From assembly GCA_965113315.1 (NCBI GenBank), contig OZ220375.1: a DNA stretch of 64,000 nucleotides. One strand, written 5' to 3'. The notes beneath the pieces were generated by a model that did no database searches, was not told where the DNA came from, and was given only the letters and a program-made list of their open reading frames with translations. A program made the translations under genes and the position numbers. Below, piece after piece: positions 18,101 to 56,571 of this stretch; the first letter of the stretch is position 1, and each line of letters starts with the position of its first letter. This DNA comes from Podarcis vaucheri. Its lineage: Eukaryota.

Positions 18101-21010
18101 AGCAGGTGTATTAGGAAGAAGAACACAGAACTGAATTTATAATTCTGCAGACAGAGTAGGAGATGGCACTGATATGATAGTATCCTAGATAATTCCCCAC
18201 ATATTGTGCTGCTGCAAATGACAGTAGGCCCTATAGAAAAGGGAAATGATAGTGGTGTCCTTCCTTCAGTAGGTACTGCCCTGTGTTTGAGCAGAAAGCA
18301 TTTGTATGAGGGAAGCTTTGCAGTCCAATGATATCCCATTCCATTCAAAGATTGGTTTCAGATCATCTCCGTTGCCAAATGTTTCAGCTCCGAAACGTCG
18401 AAAACCCGGAAATAAGTGTTCCGGTTTTCAAACTGGTATTGAAAGAGGGAATCGGAAGCCACGCCTTGGAAATCGAATGTTTTAGAAGTCAAAAGTCCTT
18501 CCAGAATGGATTCAATTTGAATTCCAAGGTTTGACTGTACTGTCCCATGTTTGAAGAAAAAGCATTTGTATGAGGGAAGCCTTACAGCCCAGTGAGGTGC
18601 CGCTGCATTCATATATAGGAAGCTGTGGTAACGGTTAAGAAAGATGATCAGCATTCCCTCTATCCCATATCAACCAAATCCTTCCTTAGAACAGGTGTTC
18701 ACACACCACTGCAGTGTCTTCTGAGATGTTCAGGGAGACAAGGGAGGGGAGGGGAGGAGAGAGAGAGACCTCACTACATACACATATTAGACTTATGGGC
18801 TAAATAAAGGGTTGTTAGAAAGATTGAGAGAGAGGTATGTGTGTGAAAGAAAACTGATAGGCTCTCTCCCTGCTTGGACCTGAATCCACTGACAGTTCAT
18901 TGAATCATCCCCCACCACTTGCTGTAGGTTCTGCTCCTAGGGAAAAATGCTGCAGTCTTTTCCAAAACCCTGTCTTTTCTGTTTTCAATCTAGCTCCATC
19001 ACTTTCTGAGAAATATCTCATTTAACAATACGGCAGGAGATGTGGTCTTCATCAACCAGAATGGAGAAGCAGCATCTAGCTTGGATATTGTCAACTGGAT
19101 TATATTCTCCAACCAAAGTTTGCACCGAGTGAGAGTTGGGAGGATAAATCCGCAGGCTCCTCCAGACCAATCATTACTCCTTGATGAAGATGCCATCACA
19201 TGGCACAGTTGGTTTAACCAGGTAGGGTTGCATTGTTTGCTAATTCAAAAGAGATTCAGTATTGAATAAGGAATCATTATCCACCTGCAAGTCTACTCAC
19301 TGTCTTTTGAGTTGTAAATTGATGAGTGGTGTATGACCAAAGCATCCAGGTACCAGATTAAGAGCCAAAAGTTTGCTGCTAGAAGACCAATATTTTATTA
19401 AGGAGGTTACAAAACAGAACCCTTTTACTAAAAAATAAAGTTAAGCATGGCTAACAGTGTAAATATGTCTTATGGGGTTGCTAGTTGAGATGAAAATAAC
19501 AAAAGCTAGGTTATCTAAGCCTAATCCCAACCATTCACAGACCACACTACAAGCTGCATCCATGGAAATGTGGGTTTTGCATCACACAATCCTTCATCTG
19601 AATGTGCGCCATTAGGTCCAGATCAAATATCAGTTTTTCTATGAAAGGGCCTGGAGACAGGAAGGCAAGTTTTCTTTCAGTCAAATGCAGCCTCTGGGTA
19701 CATTCCCCCAGCACAAGAGGGGATACATGCTCAGAGACCATGAAGCTACAAAGTGGATTTCTTCACAATCATTGTGACCTTGAAGCAACAATATATCAAA
19801 CAATGCAGACAAGTGGTAAGTTCGACTAATTAAATGGATTATTTTTTTCCACTGGAAGACTTCAACTAGAATCCTAAATAGAAAAAGAAAATTATTGTAA
19901 AATAAACCAAAGCAATTGGGATTTCTTTACGCTTATTAAATACTGATTTCTGACAGAGTGAAACATGATGTAAAATTTGATAAGCCCCAGGATTTGGTCT
20001 TTCTTGCTAGAAAGGTGGGAAAAGGAGGCAAAATAATACCAGAGGAAGAAACTGAGAGCAGACAGCAGCAGGTGTGTTCTCCTGCACCTCAGGGTGCAGG
20101 TGGAAGAGTGAAGGACTGATATGAGAAGAAAGGTATGAAGAGCAAGAGAGCATTAGGAATGGAAGCATCAATCTTTAAAAAAGGAGTGATCTCAAAATTA
20201 GTTTTTAAATGTATTATCAGGGACTGGGTAGAGGAGGAATGGTGGAGACCACTTCCCCAGCCTGACCCTTCCAGAGAAGAAGAAGAAGACAGTTCAGAAT
20301 TACAACAGGGGTTTAATGGAGGTCCCAGCTCAAAGGAAGGGGGGGGAGAGTTGGGAAATATTGGGGGAAGAGGAGGAGGCAGAGCTGGAGCAGCTGGCTG
20401 ACACTTTATCACTAGAAAGCATTCCAGGCCCACCATCTCCCAGATCCCGGCAAGCCTTAAAAGAGTGAGAGCAAAGGTCTTGAAGACAGATGGCACTAAG
20501 TGGCAACCATAGGCAGGGTACTGTTGCTGAATGAGGATGTGGGAGAGAAGGGGGCTGGAGATTTACTGAGGACAATGCCATTATTCCAAGAGGCTGCATT
20601 CCCAAGCCTCTCTCTGTAAATATTGAATAACAAGTAGATGGTAAGGACTTTTCCTTTTCTCATCCATTCCTGGCAACCTGCAGTGGGACTTGGTTCCCCT
20701 GCTGCCTGCCAGGTATATTTTGTTCTTAACCTACTGAGAATTGTGTTGCAGCTTACCAAAGAAGTGTCATAGGTTTTGGATAGCTTCATTCCAATTCATG
20801 TATTTGTCCAGAATATTTTCGTATTGGAATTCACAAAGATTGCGTTCCTCAAAAATAATAATTATTATTATTGTTATGTTTATTTGTTTATTTATTTATT
20901 TATTTATTCATTCATTCATTTTCCGCCTATCTAGCTGGGTTTCCCCAGCCACTTTGGGCAGCTTCCAACAAAATCTTAAAATATAATAGTCCGTTAAACA
21001 TTAAAAGCAT

Positions 21011-27931: not shown

Positions 27932-30900
27932 GTAAGAACTAAGCCACACATCTATTACAGAACAGGAATGATCAAACCTAGAGATGCAGCCTCAGAATCA
28001 TGATGGAATATATTATGAAACATAGAATTTTGTGAATTACAAAATGAATTTCAGTAGCGGCAAATGTCAGGTTCTGCACTTAGGCAGGAATTACCAGCTA
28101 CACAAATCTAAGGTAGGGAACACCCGGCCTGCCAGTAGCACACTTGAAAAGGATCAAGGAGTCTGCATCCACAGAAGTATAGTGCCCCAATCAAAAGAAG
28201 TAACAGAGCAGCTCTATTCTGCCATGCTCAGACCACACCTGGAGTACTGTGCTCAGTTGTGTACAGCACTATTTAAGGAGGATATTGACAAGCTGCAACA
28301 TGTGCAGAAGGAGGATGATACATATGATCAAGGGTCTGGAAGCCAAAATTATGAGGGAACATTGAGGGGGTTGGCTATGTTTAGCTATGAAAATAGAAGA
28401 CTGAGTGGATGTAGGATAGACATTTTTAAATATCTCATCAGCTGTCACCAGGAAGATGGAGCAAGCTTGTTTTCTCCAGAGGGAAGGACCCAAACCAGTG
28501 GATTCAAGATGCAAGAGAGGAGATTCTGTCTAGACATCAGGAAGAACTTGCTAATTATAAAAACTGTTCAGCAATGGAATAGACAGGGAGTTAACTCCAC
28601 TGAAGTCTATATGCTTAACTACTTTGTTGATATGTAAAATGATATACCAGTATATGTTCCTCCTGATGCCCTTTGCAACTCTCATTCTAGGGTGGTGCCT
28701 AAGCTTTACCAGCACATTGTGGCCTTGGCATTTGCAGTCAAGGAGATCACTGAAGACCCTCACATCTTACCCAATATCACCTTGGGCTTTCACTTATATG
28801 ACAGCTATAACAATGCAAGGAGCACATATCTCGCCACACTGCTACTTTTATCCAGGGTGGAGAAATTTGTTCCTAACTATCTATGTGATGTTGAAAATAA
28901 TCTGGCAGGGGTCATTGGGGGACTTGATTCTGAAATCTCCTTTTATGTGGCAACTGTTTTGGATATCTATAAGATTCCGCAGGTAGGACACCTATGTACT
29001 ATACCTCTGTTAGCTTGAGTTTCAGGTAGGTAGCCGTGTTGCTCTGGTGCAGTAGAAATATATAAAATTAAAAAATTTAAAAAATTGTCCACTAGCACCT
29101 TAGAGACCAACTGAGTTTGTTCTTGGTATGAGCTTTCATGTGCATGCACATTTCACAGCACCCGTTCAGGGTGTATTACCACTTCTGGGTTGGGATGAAA
29201 TTGGAGCAGAACCAGTTCTTTGGAATGTAAAGGTGGTACAGGATTAAAATAAAATAAAATTACCTGAATTAGGGGAAAGAAAGGCTGCAATACCAGAAAA
29301 AATATGTCACACCCCCAATCTCTTGCACACACATTAAGTATCTGAAGAAGTGTGCATGCACACAAAAGCTCATACCAATAACAAACTTAGTTGGTCTCTA
29401 AGGTGCTACTGGAAGGAATTTTTTTTATTTTGTTTCGACTATGGTAGACCAGCACGGCTACCTATCTGTAACACACATTAAGGACATCCCAAAGGCAATT
29501 GGTGGGAGAGTGGGCTTCTCTCTCACCAGCCATGACTCCACACGCAATATGTGTATGTTTAGGGGGAAAGCACTTTCAAATTAAACACACTCTGAAGGTA
29601 TGACAAATTGCAGATATAATCCAGTTATGCAGGAAAACAGTAATAGTACTGAGCAGCTGGTTCCAAAGTGAAATAAATGTTCATAAATGATGTCTGAGGT
29701 CTTGAAAAACAAGAGGGAGAAATGGCAGTTCTGCTGTGTCTTGGGGTATGTGCATCATGAATACGAAAGAAGTTCCAGAGAAGGAATGTGTATGCAACCC
29801 AAGTTGCAATTCTGTCATGACTACAGTAAATAATGTCTTTTACAGTGTTAGGCAATGCTATGTTTAGGGCATTATGTGTCTCTCCAATCAGTTGTACATG
29901 ACCCTGCCAAATTTTGCAAGTATGTGAAAGTTAAAAAAATATAAGATAATATAAGAACAATCCCCCTGTCTGGTCAACATAACAAATGTGTAACAAGCAG
30001 GAATAGGAGATGATCGCAATTTCCAGACCATCTGCATGTGTGTTTAGTATAAATGAGAAAGCAATGCAACCCCTGGTGGGTGGCAAAAGGCATATCTGAC
30101 AAACAGGATTCACCACATAATGTATATGAATAGTTTGAAAGAACTCTACAAATATTACTTTGCCTCTTCTCTTCCTCCATTTACTTTTTAGCTCATTTAT
30201 GGCTCTGCTCCAGTGATGAATGATAAAAGCCCAGGGCTTCCCTTCTACCAGATGGCAGCCTCAGAAGCCTTTCAGTACGAGGGAATTCTCTCTTTGCTTC
30301 TGCATTTCAGGTGGATGTGGATTGGAATTATTGCAACGGACAATGACAATGGAGAAAGATTTGTGCAAACCATTTCCCCAATGTTTACCAAGAGTGGTGT
30401 CTGCTTTGCATACATAGAAAGAATCCCCAATTTTAGTTTTATTTCTGAAATTCCTGGCATGGTAACACAGGGGGCAATAATAAACGAGAAAATTTTTAGC
30501 AGCAATGCTAACGTAGTGGTTGCCTCTGGAGAATCTTACTTCATGACAACTTTTAGGTTGCTTTCATACTTTTCAGAAAATGATGACCAGACAAAGAAAG
30601 TAAAAAGTAAAGTATGGATAATAACAGCCCAGGTTGAGTTTGCTTCATTTGTCTTTCAAAGGTACTGGGAGGCAGGAATATTCAATGGTGCTATATCCTT
30701 TGAAATTCACTGCAAAAACCCACCAGGATTTCATCAGTATGTTGTGCACAGAAACCCTTCCAGCACAGATGGGGACGGTTTTATCAGGGACTTCTGGCAA
30801 CAGGCCTTTGAATGTGTATTCCCAGATATCACTGCAGACAAGGCAGAGGGGAATATTTGCACCAGAGAAGAGAAGCTGGAGAGCCTTCCTGCATCACTTT

Positions 30901-45600: not shown

Positions 45601-48600
45601 AATTCAGTTACAGATGGGTAGCCGTGTTGGTCTGCCATAGTCAAAATAAAAAAATTCCTTCCTGTAGCACCTTAAAGACCAACTAAGTTAGTTCTTGGTA
45701 TAAGCTTTCGTGTGCATGCACACTTCTTCAGATACACGATACATGCACACTTCTTCAGACACACTTCTTCAGATACACGTGTATCTGAAGAAGTGTGCAT
45801 GCACACGAAAGCTTATACCAAGAACTAACTTAGTTGGTCTTTAAGGTGCTACAGGAAGGAATTTTTTTATTTTGACTAAAAATTCACAGAGAACACAAAT
45901 ACACACAAGCAAATGTGTTATATTGATAAGAACTTTTCCTCTCTCACTTCTTTTTTAAAACCTTTAGGTCATATATGGTTCTTCACCAGTTATGAATAAA
46001 CAATCTCAAGGAGTTTTCTTCCACCAGATGTTTCCAAATTGGGACCATCAATATAGAGGAATCATCAAGTTACTGCTGCATTTCCAGTGGACGTGGATTG
46101 GAGTGGTTTCTGAGGCTGATGAAAATACAGAAGGTTTTATAGAGAATGTACTTCCACTGTTTTCCCAGAGTGGCATCTGCTTTGACTTCATTGAAACTTT
46201 ACCTAAGCTAACATCTTCCAGTGGTGTCACGGACATGGTGGGGGAGGGCTTTCACGGTGTCAATGTTATTATGGGAAGCACTACGAATGTTGTAGTTGTA
46301 CATGGAGAAATTCAGACGATGATGGTAATGAAAATGATGCCCCAGGTTGTAAAATTTGAGCATATACCAATAAGAACCAAGGGTAAAGTCTGGTTCCTAA
46401 CAGCCCAGATGGATATCACATCATTTCCATTCCAAAGAAATTGGGACATAAGTTTCCTTCATGGTTCTCTTTCCCTTTCCCTTCACTCAGTGAATCTGTT
46501 AGCTTTCCAGAAGTTCCTTCAGATCAAGAACCCAATCACAGAAAAAGAAGATGGTTTAATCAAGGACTTCTGGGAAGAGTCATTTAACTGTTCATTCTCC
46601 AGTTCTGTTACAGATAATATAGGTAGGCAAATTTGCACTGGGGAGGAGAAGATGGAGGCACTTCCTGTGTCTGTTTTTGAAATGAGAATGTCTGCCCATG
46701 GCTACAACATCTACAATGCAGTCTATGCAGTGGCACATGCTTTGCACATCAGACATTCATCCCAATTCAAGCTCAGGGGAATGGCAAAGGGAGTAAGATG
46801 GGAGCTTGCAAATCAACAACCGTGGCAGGTAATGTCCTGAAGGTACTTCCATATATTTGGGGGTGGGGAAATGGGCAAGCTCTTTCAACCTTCTATGGGA
46901 TTAACAAGTTTTTGGACTTTTATTGTTTTAATCAGCTATATAATAATTTAGATCTGATTGTGTATTGCAATTCACTCTGGGATTTATTAGCGTAGAGTGA
47001 GTTTTTAAAAAAAATATTTTGTTTTTTAAAAAAACATATAACCACATTGGGGTTAGGATATCAAAAATTTCTTAAGCATTTCTGTCCTTGCATAGAAACC
47101 TGTCTTATATCAAATACAGACCACTGGTCCATGTAGATCAGTATTGTCTACACTGACTGACAGAAACTCCCCAGCAATTCAGGCAAAAACCGTTCCTGGG
47201 CCTACTTAGAGATGCCTGGGATTGAACCTGGAACCTTCTGCATTCAAGCATGTAAAGGTAACGGTAAAGGGACCCCTGACTATTAGGTCCAGTCGTGACC
47301 GACTCTGGGGTTGCGGCGCTCATCTTGCTTTTTTGGCCAAGGGAGCCAGCGTACAGCTTCCGGGTCATGTGCCCTGCATGACTAAGCCGCTTCTGGCAAA
47401 CCAGAGCAGTTCATGGAAACGCCGTTTACCTTACCTTATCTACTTGCACTTTGATGTGCTTTCAAACTGCTAGGTTGGCAGGAGCAGGGACTGAGCAACA
47501 GGAGCTCACCCCATCGCGGAGATTCAAACTGCTGACCTTCCGATCATCAAGTCCTAGGCTATGTGGTTTGACCCACAGCGCCACCCAAGTCCCATTCAAA
47601 CATGTACTCTACTGCTAAACCAAAGCCCTTCTCCAGGTGCCTTACTGGAAAAAGCAGAGGAGGGTATAACTCCTCATTTTTGCCCATACTAGAAACAGCA
47701 ACAGGACTGCCATCAGTAGCATTGCCAGCCATGATATCTCACCCCATAATAGTTGCATCCATACCACAGACTTAAATCATGGGCACTACAGTCTAAAGGT
47801 AGTAAAGGTATTTTGATAGAAAGACCTAAAGCTCTCTTGATAAGCCTACAATGTGCAAGGCTCTTTAGTGTAAGCCAAGACAGTGGAAGTTAAAGTAGTG
47901 GTGCAGTTGTGGCCAATATTCCATGATGTAGGATTTTATGTGACCTTTTCCTGTTTCTAACATTAGCTTGCACAAAGCTTTCAAGAGATTGTAATCCCAA
48001 GCCTTCCTGTTGCATGCATTTTTACCACATTGTATGATAGCATAGTTTGAACTTTTATATGTATCTTCCTTCTTATTTTCATTATTTAGCTCCATCACAT
48101 TCTCAGAAGTATTTCATTTAACAACACTGCAGGAGAAAAGGTGCATTTTGACCCAAATGGTGAATTAATTGCTGGCTTTGACATTATAAACTGGCTCACG
48201 TTTCCAAATCAGTCCTTTCTTAGAGTCAAAATTGGGAAGATAGACTCCCTGGGTACCCAGGAGAAATCACTCACCATTCATGAGGATGCCATTGTATGGC
48301 CCAACCAATTTAACCAGGTGGGTTCTCTGCACTATTCAGGGTTCATTCCATCACTTGACCAATGATCTAAAAAAAAGGTAGTTCCCTATGTGGCTGTTTC
48401 TCCATATTCTGTAAATATAGTGAGCCCTATTCAAACTACAGCTTTCAATCTGAACATTCATGTTGTAGTTACATATTAATGTGCCACATAATGTTCATTT
48501 TGCACTTTCAAGGAATCATTCATTCAGAGTGGTAGCACTCTGAAACTCCTTTACCATTATATTAGGCATCTTCTTTCACTGTTATTTCGGGGTTGGTTGG

Positions 48601-52190: not shown

Positions 52191-52690
52191 TGTTAGAGAC
52201 TAGACTGAAGAGGAATGGTGGAGACCATCCTCCCCTCCTCCTGAATCTTCCTGAGAAGAGGAGGACAGTATAGATTTACAACAGTAGTTTGCAGAAGGTC
52301 ATAGTTCAGAAGCCACAGAGGGGAGAAGCTGGGAAATATTGGGAGAACTGCAAGAGGAAGAAGAAGCACCAGGCAAGAGACAGCTGGCAGACTCACTGTC
52401 TTTAGAAAGCATTCCTGACCCCCCCCCCTCCCAGGACCCAGCAGGTGTTGAGAGTAGGAGAACAGAAAGCACAGAGGCAGAAAGCACAGATCAGCCGACA
52501 CAGGGATGACATATAATATGAGAGATGGAGGGGGTGGGACTTTACTCAGAGCAACACCATTACTGAAATAGAGGCACCTTTACTAAGCCTTTCACTGTGA
52601 ATATTGAATAAAAGACTGGTAAGAGCTCTTCTTGTTTATCTGCTTCTTGGCTGCCACCATGGGAGGGATCGGATTCCCTGAAGCTTGACA
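52191..52690 (+). mobile_element. Solo LTR, 500 bp
   Basis: TG...CA termini (tgttag...ttgaca), perfect 5-bp TSD ggttt, AATAAA near 52607. Confidence 0.85.
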
Positions 52691-54715: not shown

Positions 54716-56571
54716 GTATGTAAGCAGTTTTGTGTTTCTTTAACCATATCATACACATGTAAGGAATATATTCGCCTTAGACCTCCTCCCCAGCCTCCTC
54801 TCTCATAAGTTTTGGGGCAGATATCAGTGCTATTTTTTTCTAGAAAAAAGGGGTGCTGGAACTCACCATGAACACTCCCTTGTTCTCTTATAATGGTAAT
54901 GGCACCCACCTGAGAGGTGCTGGAACTGAGTTCTGGTGAGTTCCAGCTTGGGGGGGGGAGCCCTGGCAGATCTGATATCTCACCACTGCTTTTGCAGGGT
55001 AGTCCAGGTTTGTATCCTTTCGTTTCCACAAACTTCCCTGGGCAGTGGCCATATGGTCTATTTTTGCACAGTTTCATAGGTAGATATAGAAAGATAGATA
55101 TCCTGATCTGTAGAAGATGTCCTTTGATGCAGTTTGTAGCTCTCATTGCAGGCTAATGACACAGCTCTATCAACACATCCTGGCCTTGGTATTTGCTATA
55201 AAGGAGATAAACAAAAATCCCCAGTTCTTACCTAATGCCACATTGGGATTCCACATCTATAATAGCCATTTCAGAGCATGCCGGACCTATCAAGCCTCAT
55301 TGGAACTACTCTCTAGAAGGGGCAGTTTCATCCCGAATTACAAGTGTGATGTTGAGAACATTCCAGTAGCAGTCATTGGGGGACCTAACTATGAATTATC
55401 TTTCCACATGGCAAATATACTGTGCATGTACAAGATGCCACAAGTAAGATGCATGCATGGAGCATGGGTTATTGTTCTCCTGGACTTTGTATCTTTTGGC
55501 TTCAAGGTGGTGTTTGAACACATATGTGATCCAAAATTCATTTCATAAAATGAAAATAAATCAATCAATCTCCCTGAACATAACACACTAGAATGTCAGT
55601 TCATTTTTGTATCCAGCCTGACATGTTTTCTTTGTAGCCACAAAGTTGATCTCTAAGGTGCTACTGGAAGGAATTTTTTAAATTTGTTTTGACTACGGCA
55701 GACCAACACGGCTACCTACCTATAACTAGATCTTTGTAGCCACAGTTCCATATAGGTCTTTGCACGGACCAAAAAATTGCCTTGTATCTGCACATTTTAT
55801 TTTATTTTTTAAAGCTGATCCATTTCTGAGTCACTCTGTGCTCTCATTTCCAAGTTGCTCTCTGTAAAGAAAAGCTGTAGTTATTCTATTAATTATAATA
55901 GGGAATCTAAAAATGGCTAAAAAAATATTGTTTTCCACTTTTGGTGAAAGTGGATGAAATTTGCATATACAGGAGCCCTTTTAGAGTGGATTAAGCCTGT
56001 CACATTATAGGCAGGGAAATCTGAGATGGGGGTGAGGTGATGCAGGACACCTTTAAATCATGTGTTTTTTTAAGAACAAATGAAAAGTCTGTGGCTTTTA
56101 AATTTTCTGCCAGAATTTGATGCAATGTCAGAGTGGCCATTCAGAGGAGATGGAGCCTGCCCGGTTTCATAGTAATAGGTGCAGTGTGGCAACCTTCCCT
56201 GAATCACCCTATTTCATCCCACAAGTTGGGATAGCAACAAAGCCGATGTACGTTCCTAGCTCCAAATATCCTTAAAAGGTCTCCTGGTCTGCATTTTGGC
56301 ATTAAAAAAGAGGAGAAATCTCTCATTGGGTTTTACACTTTAAATTAATATAGATTATGCAAAGATTCCATAAACTAGAATATGCCAGTCTTGAAATGAA
56401 GTTGCAACTTTTCCTTCTCAGCCCTTCCTAAATTTAAATTCAACCACTCAATGCCACCTGGGGAAATGCTGAACCTGGTGCAATTTTAAATTTAAATCTA
56501 TTGTTGCCTAATACAAAATGTATTTAAGTTACTTCCAAGCACAGTTCAAATAAGAAACTATTACGTTTAAC

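Follow-up and report, generated by a model that had tools for sequence, protein, structure and literature searches.

Does the U3 region of an old solo LTR encode part of a protein and, if so, which one? The question is raised by a stretch of 64,000 nt of DNA from the lizard Podarcis vaucheri (assembly GCA_965113315.1, contig OZ220375.1), hereafter referred to as the window, in which a reading from the letters alone (the original prediction) had described two LTRs sharing a protein-coding frame that starts at their second base (base 2) and had attributed it to the parent retroelement, either as a pol extension or as an accessory ORF. To our knowledge, few studies have addressed the choice of insertion site by vertebrate Ty3/Gypsy elements, whose integrase is usually assumed to end with the chromodomain. 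The explanation favoured here as a whole, with a probability of roughly 0.6, is that pol of a chromovirus runs through the polypurine tract (PPT) some 105-120 codons into U3, the tail added in this way likely aiding integrase to enter the nucleus or to hold on to chromatin.

Solo LTRs of the window and their families

Both LTRs were found where they had been predicted, with flanking target duplications (Table 1), and are old solo LTRs of lizard Ty3/Gypsy chromoviruses, one at 20215-20711 (copy 1) and the other at 52191-52690 (copy 2). Positions 1900-64000 of the window are what we take, from long ORFs, to be a tandem cluster of vomeronasal type-2 receptor-like genes; the transmembrane exon of these genes is present there in at least 7 copies, all on the + strand, and copy 1 sits inside the cluster. 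The window also contains an inverted repeat (45638-45878) whose 101-nt arms match perfectly and are separated by 39 nt; it has related arms at 29088-29430 and 55644-55735 and is probably a young MITE-like element.

Table 1. Features of the two LTR copies in the window
Feature	Position	Strand	Remark
Left TSD (TGTAT) of copy 1	20210..20214	+	Right counterpart GGTAT at 20712-20716; 4/5 match
Solo LTR, family A, Ty3/Gypsy chromovirus, decayed (copy 1)	20215..20711	+	Family termini TGTCAG...CTGACA
Putative U3-encoded last ~106 codons of pol (integrase tail)	20216..20534	+	Family-wide stop 20532-20534
Acidic, Trp-containing, predicted disordered part of the tail	20216..20435	+	Net charge ~-21 over 71 aa in unbroken copies
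Ser-Pro, then Arg/Lys-rich predicted alpha-helix	20436..20505	+	Tail residues 75-95, pLDDT ~90
Poly(A) signal at 20626 (other copies have AATAAA), preceded by a TATA-like element at 20560	20560..20631	+	3' of the family-wide stop
Solo LTR, family B (copy 2)	52191..52690	+	Flanked by perfect 5-bp TSD GGTTT/GGTTT
Putative pol-tail frame of copy 2	52192..52516	+	Interrupted by stops and a slip in a C-run; family-wide stop 52514-52516

LTRs of the type of copy 1 were named family A, those of the type of copy 2 family B, and a third LTR type family C. A first look genome-wide gave 2549 (A), 3586 (B) and 1526 (C) candidates, i.e., candidate copies number thousands in this 1.6-Gb genome, whose Sauria-type SINEs agree with a lizard, and 40 were scored per type. 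From 90 loci fetched, 13 truncated ones were dropped, leaving 27 (A), 24 (B) and 26 (C) copies, with a mean identity of 83-87% inside families (87% for A) and 53-66% between them (about 65% for A vs B). A perfect 5-bp TSD flanks 33 of the 55 family copies with both termini intact, and a perfect 4- or 6-bp TSD none of the 55. The LTR ends fit the att motifs TGTYANR...CNTNACA given for the Sushi LTR clade in Table 3 of PMC3601003, and the short TSD agrees with a sushi-type element. The best-scoring solo copies are dispersed over many contigs and positions.

Some other elements were encountered along the way. A tandem segmental duplication at G000:C26:16.0-16.7 Mb (L064-L068, L073-L077, L083-L087, L090) has multiplied one family-A element end. 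A distant LTR type, named type D (L144-L173), has the same start, acidic Trp motifs and a basic helix, with otherwise little similarity, and gave no confirmed junction copy. At L112:1800-6400, overlapping long ORFs bear RT-like and tyrosine-recombinase-like motifs and presumably belong to a near-intact DIRS-type element.

An open frame in U3

Translation from base 2 reproduces the predicted peptides of both window copies, although breaks distribute each of them among two or three frames. As had been proposed, these breaks are stops and homopolymer slips, namely a short frameshifting deletion in the G-run near 20340 plus internal stops in copy 1, and a slip in a C-run plus stops in copy 2. All five codon pairs quoted for the QLAD-ESIP block, described as differing mostly synonymously, are real, with one T/S replacement besides; the window copies share 93 codons, of which 33 match exactly, 21 differ synonymously, 34 differ non-synonymously and 5 involve a stop. 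The frame has no ATG start and, again as described, ends before the poly(A) signal, the family-wide stop lying about 90 nt upstream of it.

Among the family-A copies (n=27), the base-2 frame runs for 106 codons without a majority stop, all copies stop at LTR position 320, and the frame is unbroken in 9 of these 27 solo copies. In family C (n=26), about 115 codons are open, with the first majority stop at position 347 (65%) and the next at 371 (96%). Every other sense frame in the same stretch contains 3-7 majority stops in families A and C. Family B (n=24), in which two C-rich tracts differ in length from copy to copy, does not allow the open length to be fixed. As such, the open base-2 frame exceeds chance expectation.

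Selection on the frame

Net dN/dS, i.e., calculated from the net divergence of natural between-family pairs with bootstrap intervals, is over 93 codons 0.32 (0.18-0.55) for A-B, 0.16 (0.09-0.36) for A-C and 0.31 (0.17-0.53) for B-C, with all three intervals below 1; the comparison had been suggested along with the original prediction, and the ratio between families is not near 1. Uncorrected ratios are 0.34-0.53, with all whole-frame intervals below 1 for kappa 1-6, and for sub-regions some of the uncorrected intervals reach 1. In the part encoding the predicted helix, net pN/pS is 0.25-0.35 for A-B, and for B-C the interval extends across 1 when kappa is 3-6. In the remaining two sense frames, dN/dS is 1.3-2.2, in the 46 codons after the stop 1.05-1.86, and in two of the antisense frames 1.0-2.2. 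The antisense mirror frame is also reduced (0.46-0.72), more weakly than the base-2 frame, as expected because it shares the third codon positions. With 47 of the 93 codon columns differing non-synonymously between A and C, the constraint on the LTR-encoded tail is, as read from the aligned copies, moderate purifying selection.

Two further observations concern when the frame was constrained and which kind of change it tolerates. Singleton variants look neutral (313 nonsynonymous, 104 synonymous and 26 stops), whereas shared variants do not (63 nonsynonymous, 54 synonymous and 5 stops), which therefore points to selection in active parents followed by decay after insertion. Segment lengths respect the triplet: between A and C, the modal value is unequal in all 5 ORF segments, by 15, 18, 9, 12 and 3 nt; from the stop onward, it is unequal in 8 of 10 segments, never by a multiple of 3 (the last segment being ill-defined).

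It could be argued that a purine-rich promoter yields an acidic and stop-poor frame by composition, with no protein constraint at all, since U3 is indeed G/A-rich, codes mostly for E/G in this frame, and has a lowered dN/dS in the mirror frame as well. Such an origin would leave unexplained that dN/dS is frame-specific, that triplet indels occur solely inside the ORF, that the stop is shared and that the chromodomain is in register with the frame (see below); the triplet indels and the frame-specific selection refute composition as the sole origin of the open frame, and absence of protein constraint is hardly credible.

Junctions between the LTR and pol

A pattern search for a purine tract followed by an LTR start gave 2 loci, one of which (L032) carries an integrase C-terminus and a chromodomain, the second half of the latter continuing without a frame change through the PPT and on into the LTR peptide. 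A search with the chromodomain region of this locus gave further junctions, in 20 rows of which six correspond to one tandem-duplicated C26 locus counted once. This leaves 15 distinct junctions, in 9 of which the C-terminal half of the chromodomain shares the frame of LTR base 2; with L091, the count is 10 of 16. Among the 6 of 16 out of frame are L072, the sole junction of B type, and each of the three that are C or C-like (L079, L080, L082); B/C-type junctions are in frame in 0 of 4 cases, taking two different off-frames, with G-rich spacers of unequal length.

On an A-type junction copy, the Pfam domain Chromo (PF00385) is matched upstream of the PPT with an E-value of 7.9e-11; the chromodomain has the type I aromatic cage residues (Y, W, Y), and only about 15 codons separate it from the LTR in family A. 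In decayed parents, tblastn mapped the A-type L093 as RH-IN-chromo, the C-type L101 as RT-RH-IN-chromo, and the C-like L103 from gag to chromo. The domain order of the parents is that of Ty3/Gypsy, PR-RT-RH-IN, with the chromodomain at the integrase C-terminus, the full order coming from the young family described below. No intact full-length element of family A or B was found among the fetched sequence, and no LTR pair around the old junctions in 21 fetched stretches of 10 kb, except for a nested younger element. Neither did the tblastn-mapped parents and a PBS pattern search give a 5' LTR-PBS junction for family A: a guessed self-priming PBS pattern had 14 matches, and none of the 12 examined were LTRs. 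In other chromovirus families (L113:8470-8670, L249, L245 and L211), the LTR boundary cuts a similar acidic, Trp-rich tail at varying points, leaving some of it upstream of the PPT and the remainder within the LTR.

Because chromodomain, PPT and base-2 frame of the LTR stand in register, and because purifying selection acts between families, the base-2 frame is almost certainly the end of pol, as judged from sequence, i.e., pol extends into U3. An ORF upstream and in frame with LTR base 2, which had been named as a decisive check, is found in intact young-family elements and at the in-frame junctions above. In the alternative originally kept beside the pol extension, the frame would be a separate accessory ORF resembling HIV nef or MMTV sag and expressed from a spliced or sub-genomic RNA, with which its overlap with U3 and its being under selection agree. 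Its continuity with pol in intact elements and the few codons left between chromodomain and LTR in family A speak against a separate gene, and a nef/sag-like one is largely refuted by the lack of an own start and of env and by a parent that is a Ty3/Gypsy chromovirus, not a retrovirus; the first half of the original alternative stands, and the second is extremely improbable.

A young family with intact elements

The pol extension is seen uninterrupted in a young chromovirus family. A chromodomain search gave 152 matches, many in open frames of more than 1000 aa, of which 20 were fetched; two of these 20 have a single gag-pol ORF of 1558 aa between LTRs 99.7-99.8% identical, in the order gag, PR, RT, RH, IN, SH3 and chromo. 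In this ORF, 109 codons lie inside the 3' LTR, in the same base-2 register; four more young-family elements are in frame too, and so is L249 of another family. The young family is only about 45-60% identical to family A in pol. It comprises L234-L247 (e.g., on G000:C41, C18 and C17), with LTR pairs 97-99.8% identical and more than 100 copies, many of them on C41. In a tree of the SH3-chromo region (21 rows, one too-short row dropped, no outgroup) it stands apart from all others, with 9 of the 18 inner branches unresolved. Raw RNA reads from a related organism map, at a depth of 1-4, to both strands of the young LTR and to the chromodomain, and are too thin and too divergent to carry weight.

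Just upstream of the PPT lies a G-run, whose length, among the 100 matches listed of 107, is of the in-frame class in 51 and off by 1-2 nt in 49. This instability explains the frequent breakage of the old junctions, but its rate is high. The variation may come from RT slippage, assembly error or real switching. Were it real switching, the tail would be optional, slippage in the pre-LTR G-run producing tailed and tail-less integrases in one family; the off-frame half of the listed young-family junctions and the B/C-type junctions, all four out of frame, can be cited in its favour. Against this stand the length classes, 4/20/51/22/3 in the same 100 matches, which fall off evenly on either side of the in-frame one, the pattern that RT slippage or assembly error in homopolymers would give, the breakage of young copies at other sites too, and purifying selection, by which the lineages that spread had the tail translated. 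An optional tail is accordingly very improbable.

The PBS region of the young family is complementary over 10 nt to LTR position 374. A self-priming PBS complementary to the 5' end of the RNA is a trait of sushi-type chromoviruses, and the complement suggests self-priming in the young family, with an RNA start about 45 nt after the stop, in which case the ORF would fill nearly all of U3. By analogy with this RNA start, the U3 end and R start of copy 1 may lie near the TATA-like element and poly(A) signal of Table 1.

Properties and possible role of the tail

The tail had been described as acidic, Trp-bearing and ending in an SPR-basic part, which holds: the acidic part with its Trp residues is followed by SPRTRR (family A) or SPRSRR (family C), of pattern SP-R-[ST]-R-R, and by a basic predicted helix. 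Folding of 14 natural tails with AlphaFold predicts disorder plus one confident helix, at residues 75-95, beginning after Ser-Pro; for chromodomain plus tail of the young family, confidence is low outside the chromodomain. In A, C, type D and also the young family, an acidic stretch (71-83 aa, net -15 to -23) comes before a neutral-to-basic end; the same holds for L249 and L245 of other families, more weakly for L249 (net -6). Trp and Phe positions are preferentially conserved, with 3 of 4 Trp columns and the one Phe column shared by A, B and C. Tails of distant families have in common composition and architecture only, not sequence.

The original prediction did not recognise the protein, and neither did the searches name it. 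Pfam, PDB and the ESM Atlas gave no match for the tail, and protein database searches with the A-type chromodomain plus tail gave none, even for the chromodomain, coverage being too poor for these blanks to be informative. An HMM of 14 natural tails run against 1.84 billion representatives returned 6 unnamed singleton ORFs from ENA/Logan contigs, apparently fragments of these LTR families; neither the HMM search nor Pfam or PDB gave a family, a structure or a named homologue.

Near the end of the tail, 20 of 26 young-family LTR copies have PRRSARL, where RRSARL is expected from composition at about 1e-4 per tail. This is an exact match, putative by sequence, to RRS.R, the motif by which HMGN, Dsup and Dot5 bind the nucleosome acidic patch (PMC12487698 and PMC13347269, each in part); the core is absent from the families of the window, with SPRTRR in place of it in A/B and the pattern given above. 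Viral proteins also use such arginine anchors (PMC9040877, in part). In the literature searched (main text of open papers), no retrotransposon integrase with an HMGN-type or acidic-patch motif was found.

From these elements the following sequence of events can be proposed. On completing pol, ribosomes would continue through the PPT into U3 and terminate a short way ahead of the promoter elements. As genomic RNA carries U3 at its 3' end, the tail would be translated from that part of the full-length RNA, and no ATG would be needed. After protease cleavage, the tail would stay on integrase as its extreme C-terminus and may work through short motifs, like the disordered tail of Ty1 integrase. 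Next to the chromodomain, it would give integrase a second hold on chromatin, in which the Arg-rich end would anchor on the H2A-H2B acidic patch of the nucleosome and double as an NLS, and the acidic Trp motifs would bind a host chromatin factor. LTR-LTR recombination after insertion would have left solo LTRs, in which the frame then decays neutrally.

The steps of this scheme do not deserve equal confidence. By analogy, a role of the tail as chromatin tether or in import has about an even chance. The most specific version, in which an LTR-encoded second chromatin-targeting module, made of an acidic disordered arm and an arginine anchor, turns integrase into a two-point nucleosome reader, is tentative and on present sequence comparison rather unlikely. 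The main rival to a tether or import module is a plain NLS or nucleic-acid-binding role: the pol extension would be real, the basic end would serve only as NLS or to bind nucleic acid, and the acidic part would act as spacer or keep the protein soluble, nucleosomes not being contacted specifically. Families A-D, without a complete HMGN motif, the long Arg/Lys-rich helix and the sharing of composition and architecture in place of sequence between distant families all accord with this rival; the Trp and Phe columns kept in A, B and C, however, suggest binding motifs, and the young family keeps RRSARL exactly, such that a mere NLS and spacer appears a doubtful account.

Comparison with known systems

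An ORF running into the LTR has precedents in plants. In group A of the CRM elements, the ORF reaches into the 3' LTR, and this LTR codes for a CR targeting motif replacing the chromodomain (PMC3059260, in part), and the pol ORF of the lizard element likewise extends into the 3' LTR. In contrast to this replacement, the lizard element keeps a canonical type I chromodomain upstream of the PPT, and the LTR adds an acidic/basic tail of about 105-120 aa that has no Pfam or PDB match. Moreover, according to the same source in part, CRM group A is centromeric and primed by tRNA-Met; the best-scoring lizard solo copies are spread over many contigs, and the young relative has a self-priming complement. 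The lizard element resembles the CRM layout but is not a CRM member. Closer in layout are Bingo1-4 and Bingo7 of beet (Reina clade), in which, as in the lizard element, the ORF has its chromodomain upstream of the PPT and continues into the LTR (PMC3605345, in part); they differ in being plant elements with a type II chromodomain, and the likeness concerns the layout.

Respecting vertebrates, the Tf1/sushi-type chromoviruses have the same att ends and the Ty3/Gypsy order with SH3 and chromodomain (PMC3601003, in part), and no description of a long LTR-encoded integrase tail in them was found in the literature, this source in part included. Nor did the literature searched hold a vertebrate or reptile precedent for pol running into the LTR, the repeat databases Repbase and Dfam possibly annotating such long ORFs already. 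As the layout is already known from plants, the lizard case is a variant, not a new class. In functional terms, the disordered C-terminal tail of Ty1 integrase offers an analogy, being a Trp-dependent host tether located between two NLS halves, i.e., with basic NLS elements (PMC10050235, in part); Ty1, however, belongs to the Copia superfamily, its tail is not encoded by the LTR, and the likeness carries no claim of sequence homology.

Meaning for the biology of these elements

With about 105-120 extra residues under purifying selection that probably fill nearly all of U3, the promoter region of these chromoviruses would also be coding, and calling such LTRs non-coding would miss part of pol. 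Even where the full-length parents have decayed, selection acting on an integrase domain can be measured from solo LTRs. The tail is a defined and testable candidate tether, available as short natural peptides, one of which has the exact HMGN-type motif. Were integrase a two-point reader, the position of the module in U3 would mean that promoter and targeting tail are replaced jointly when LTRs are exchanged, and the solo LTRs, numbering thousands, would constitute a record of the evolution of this module.
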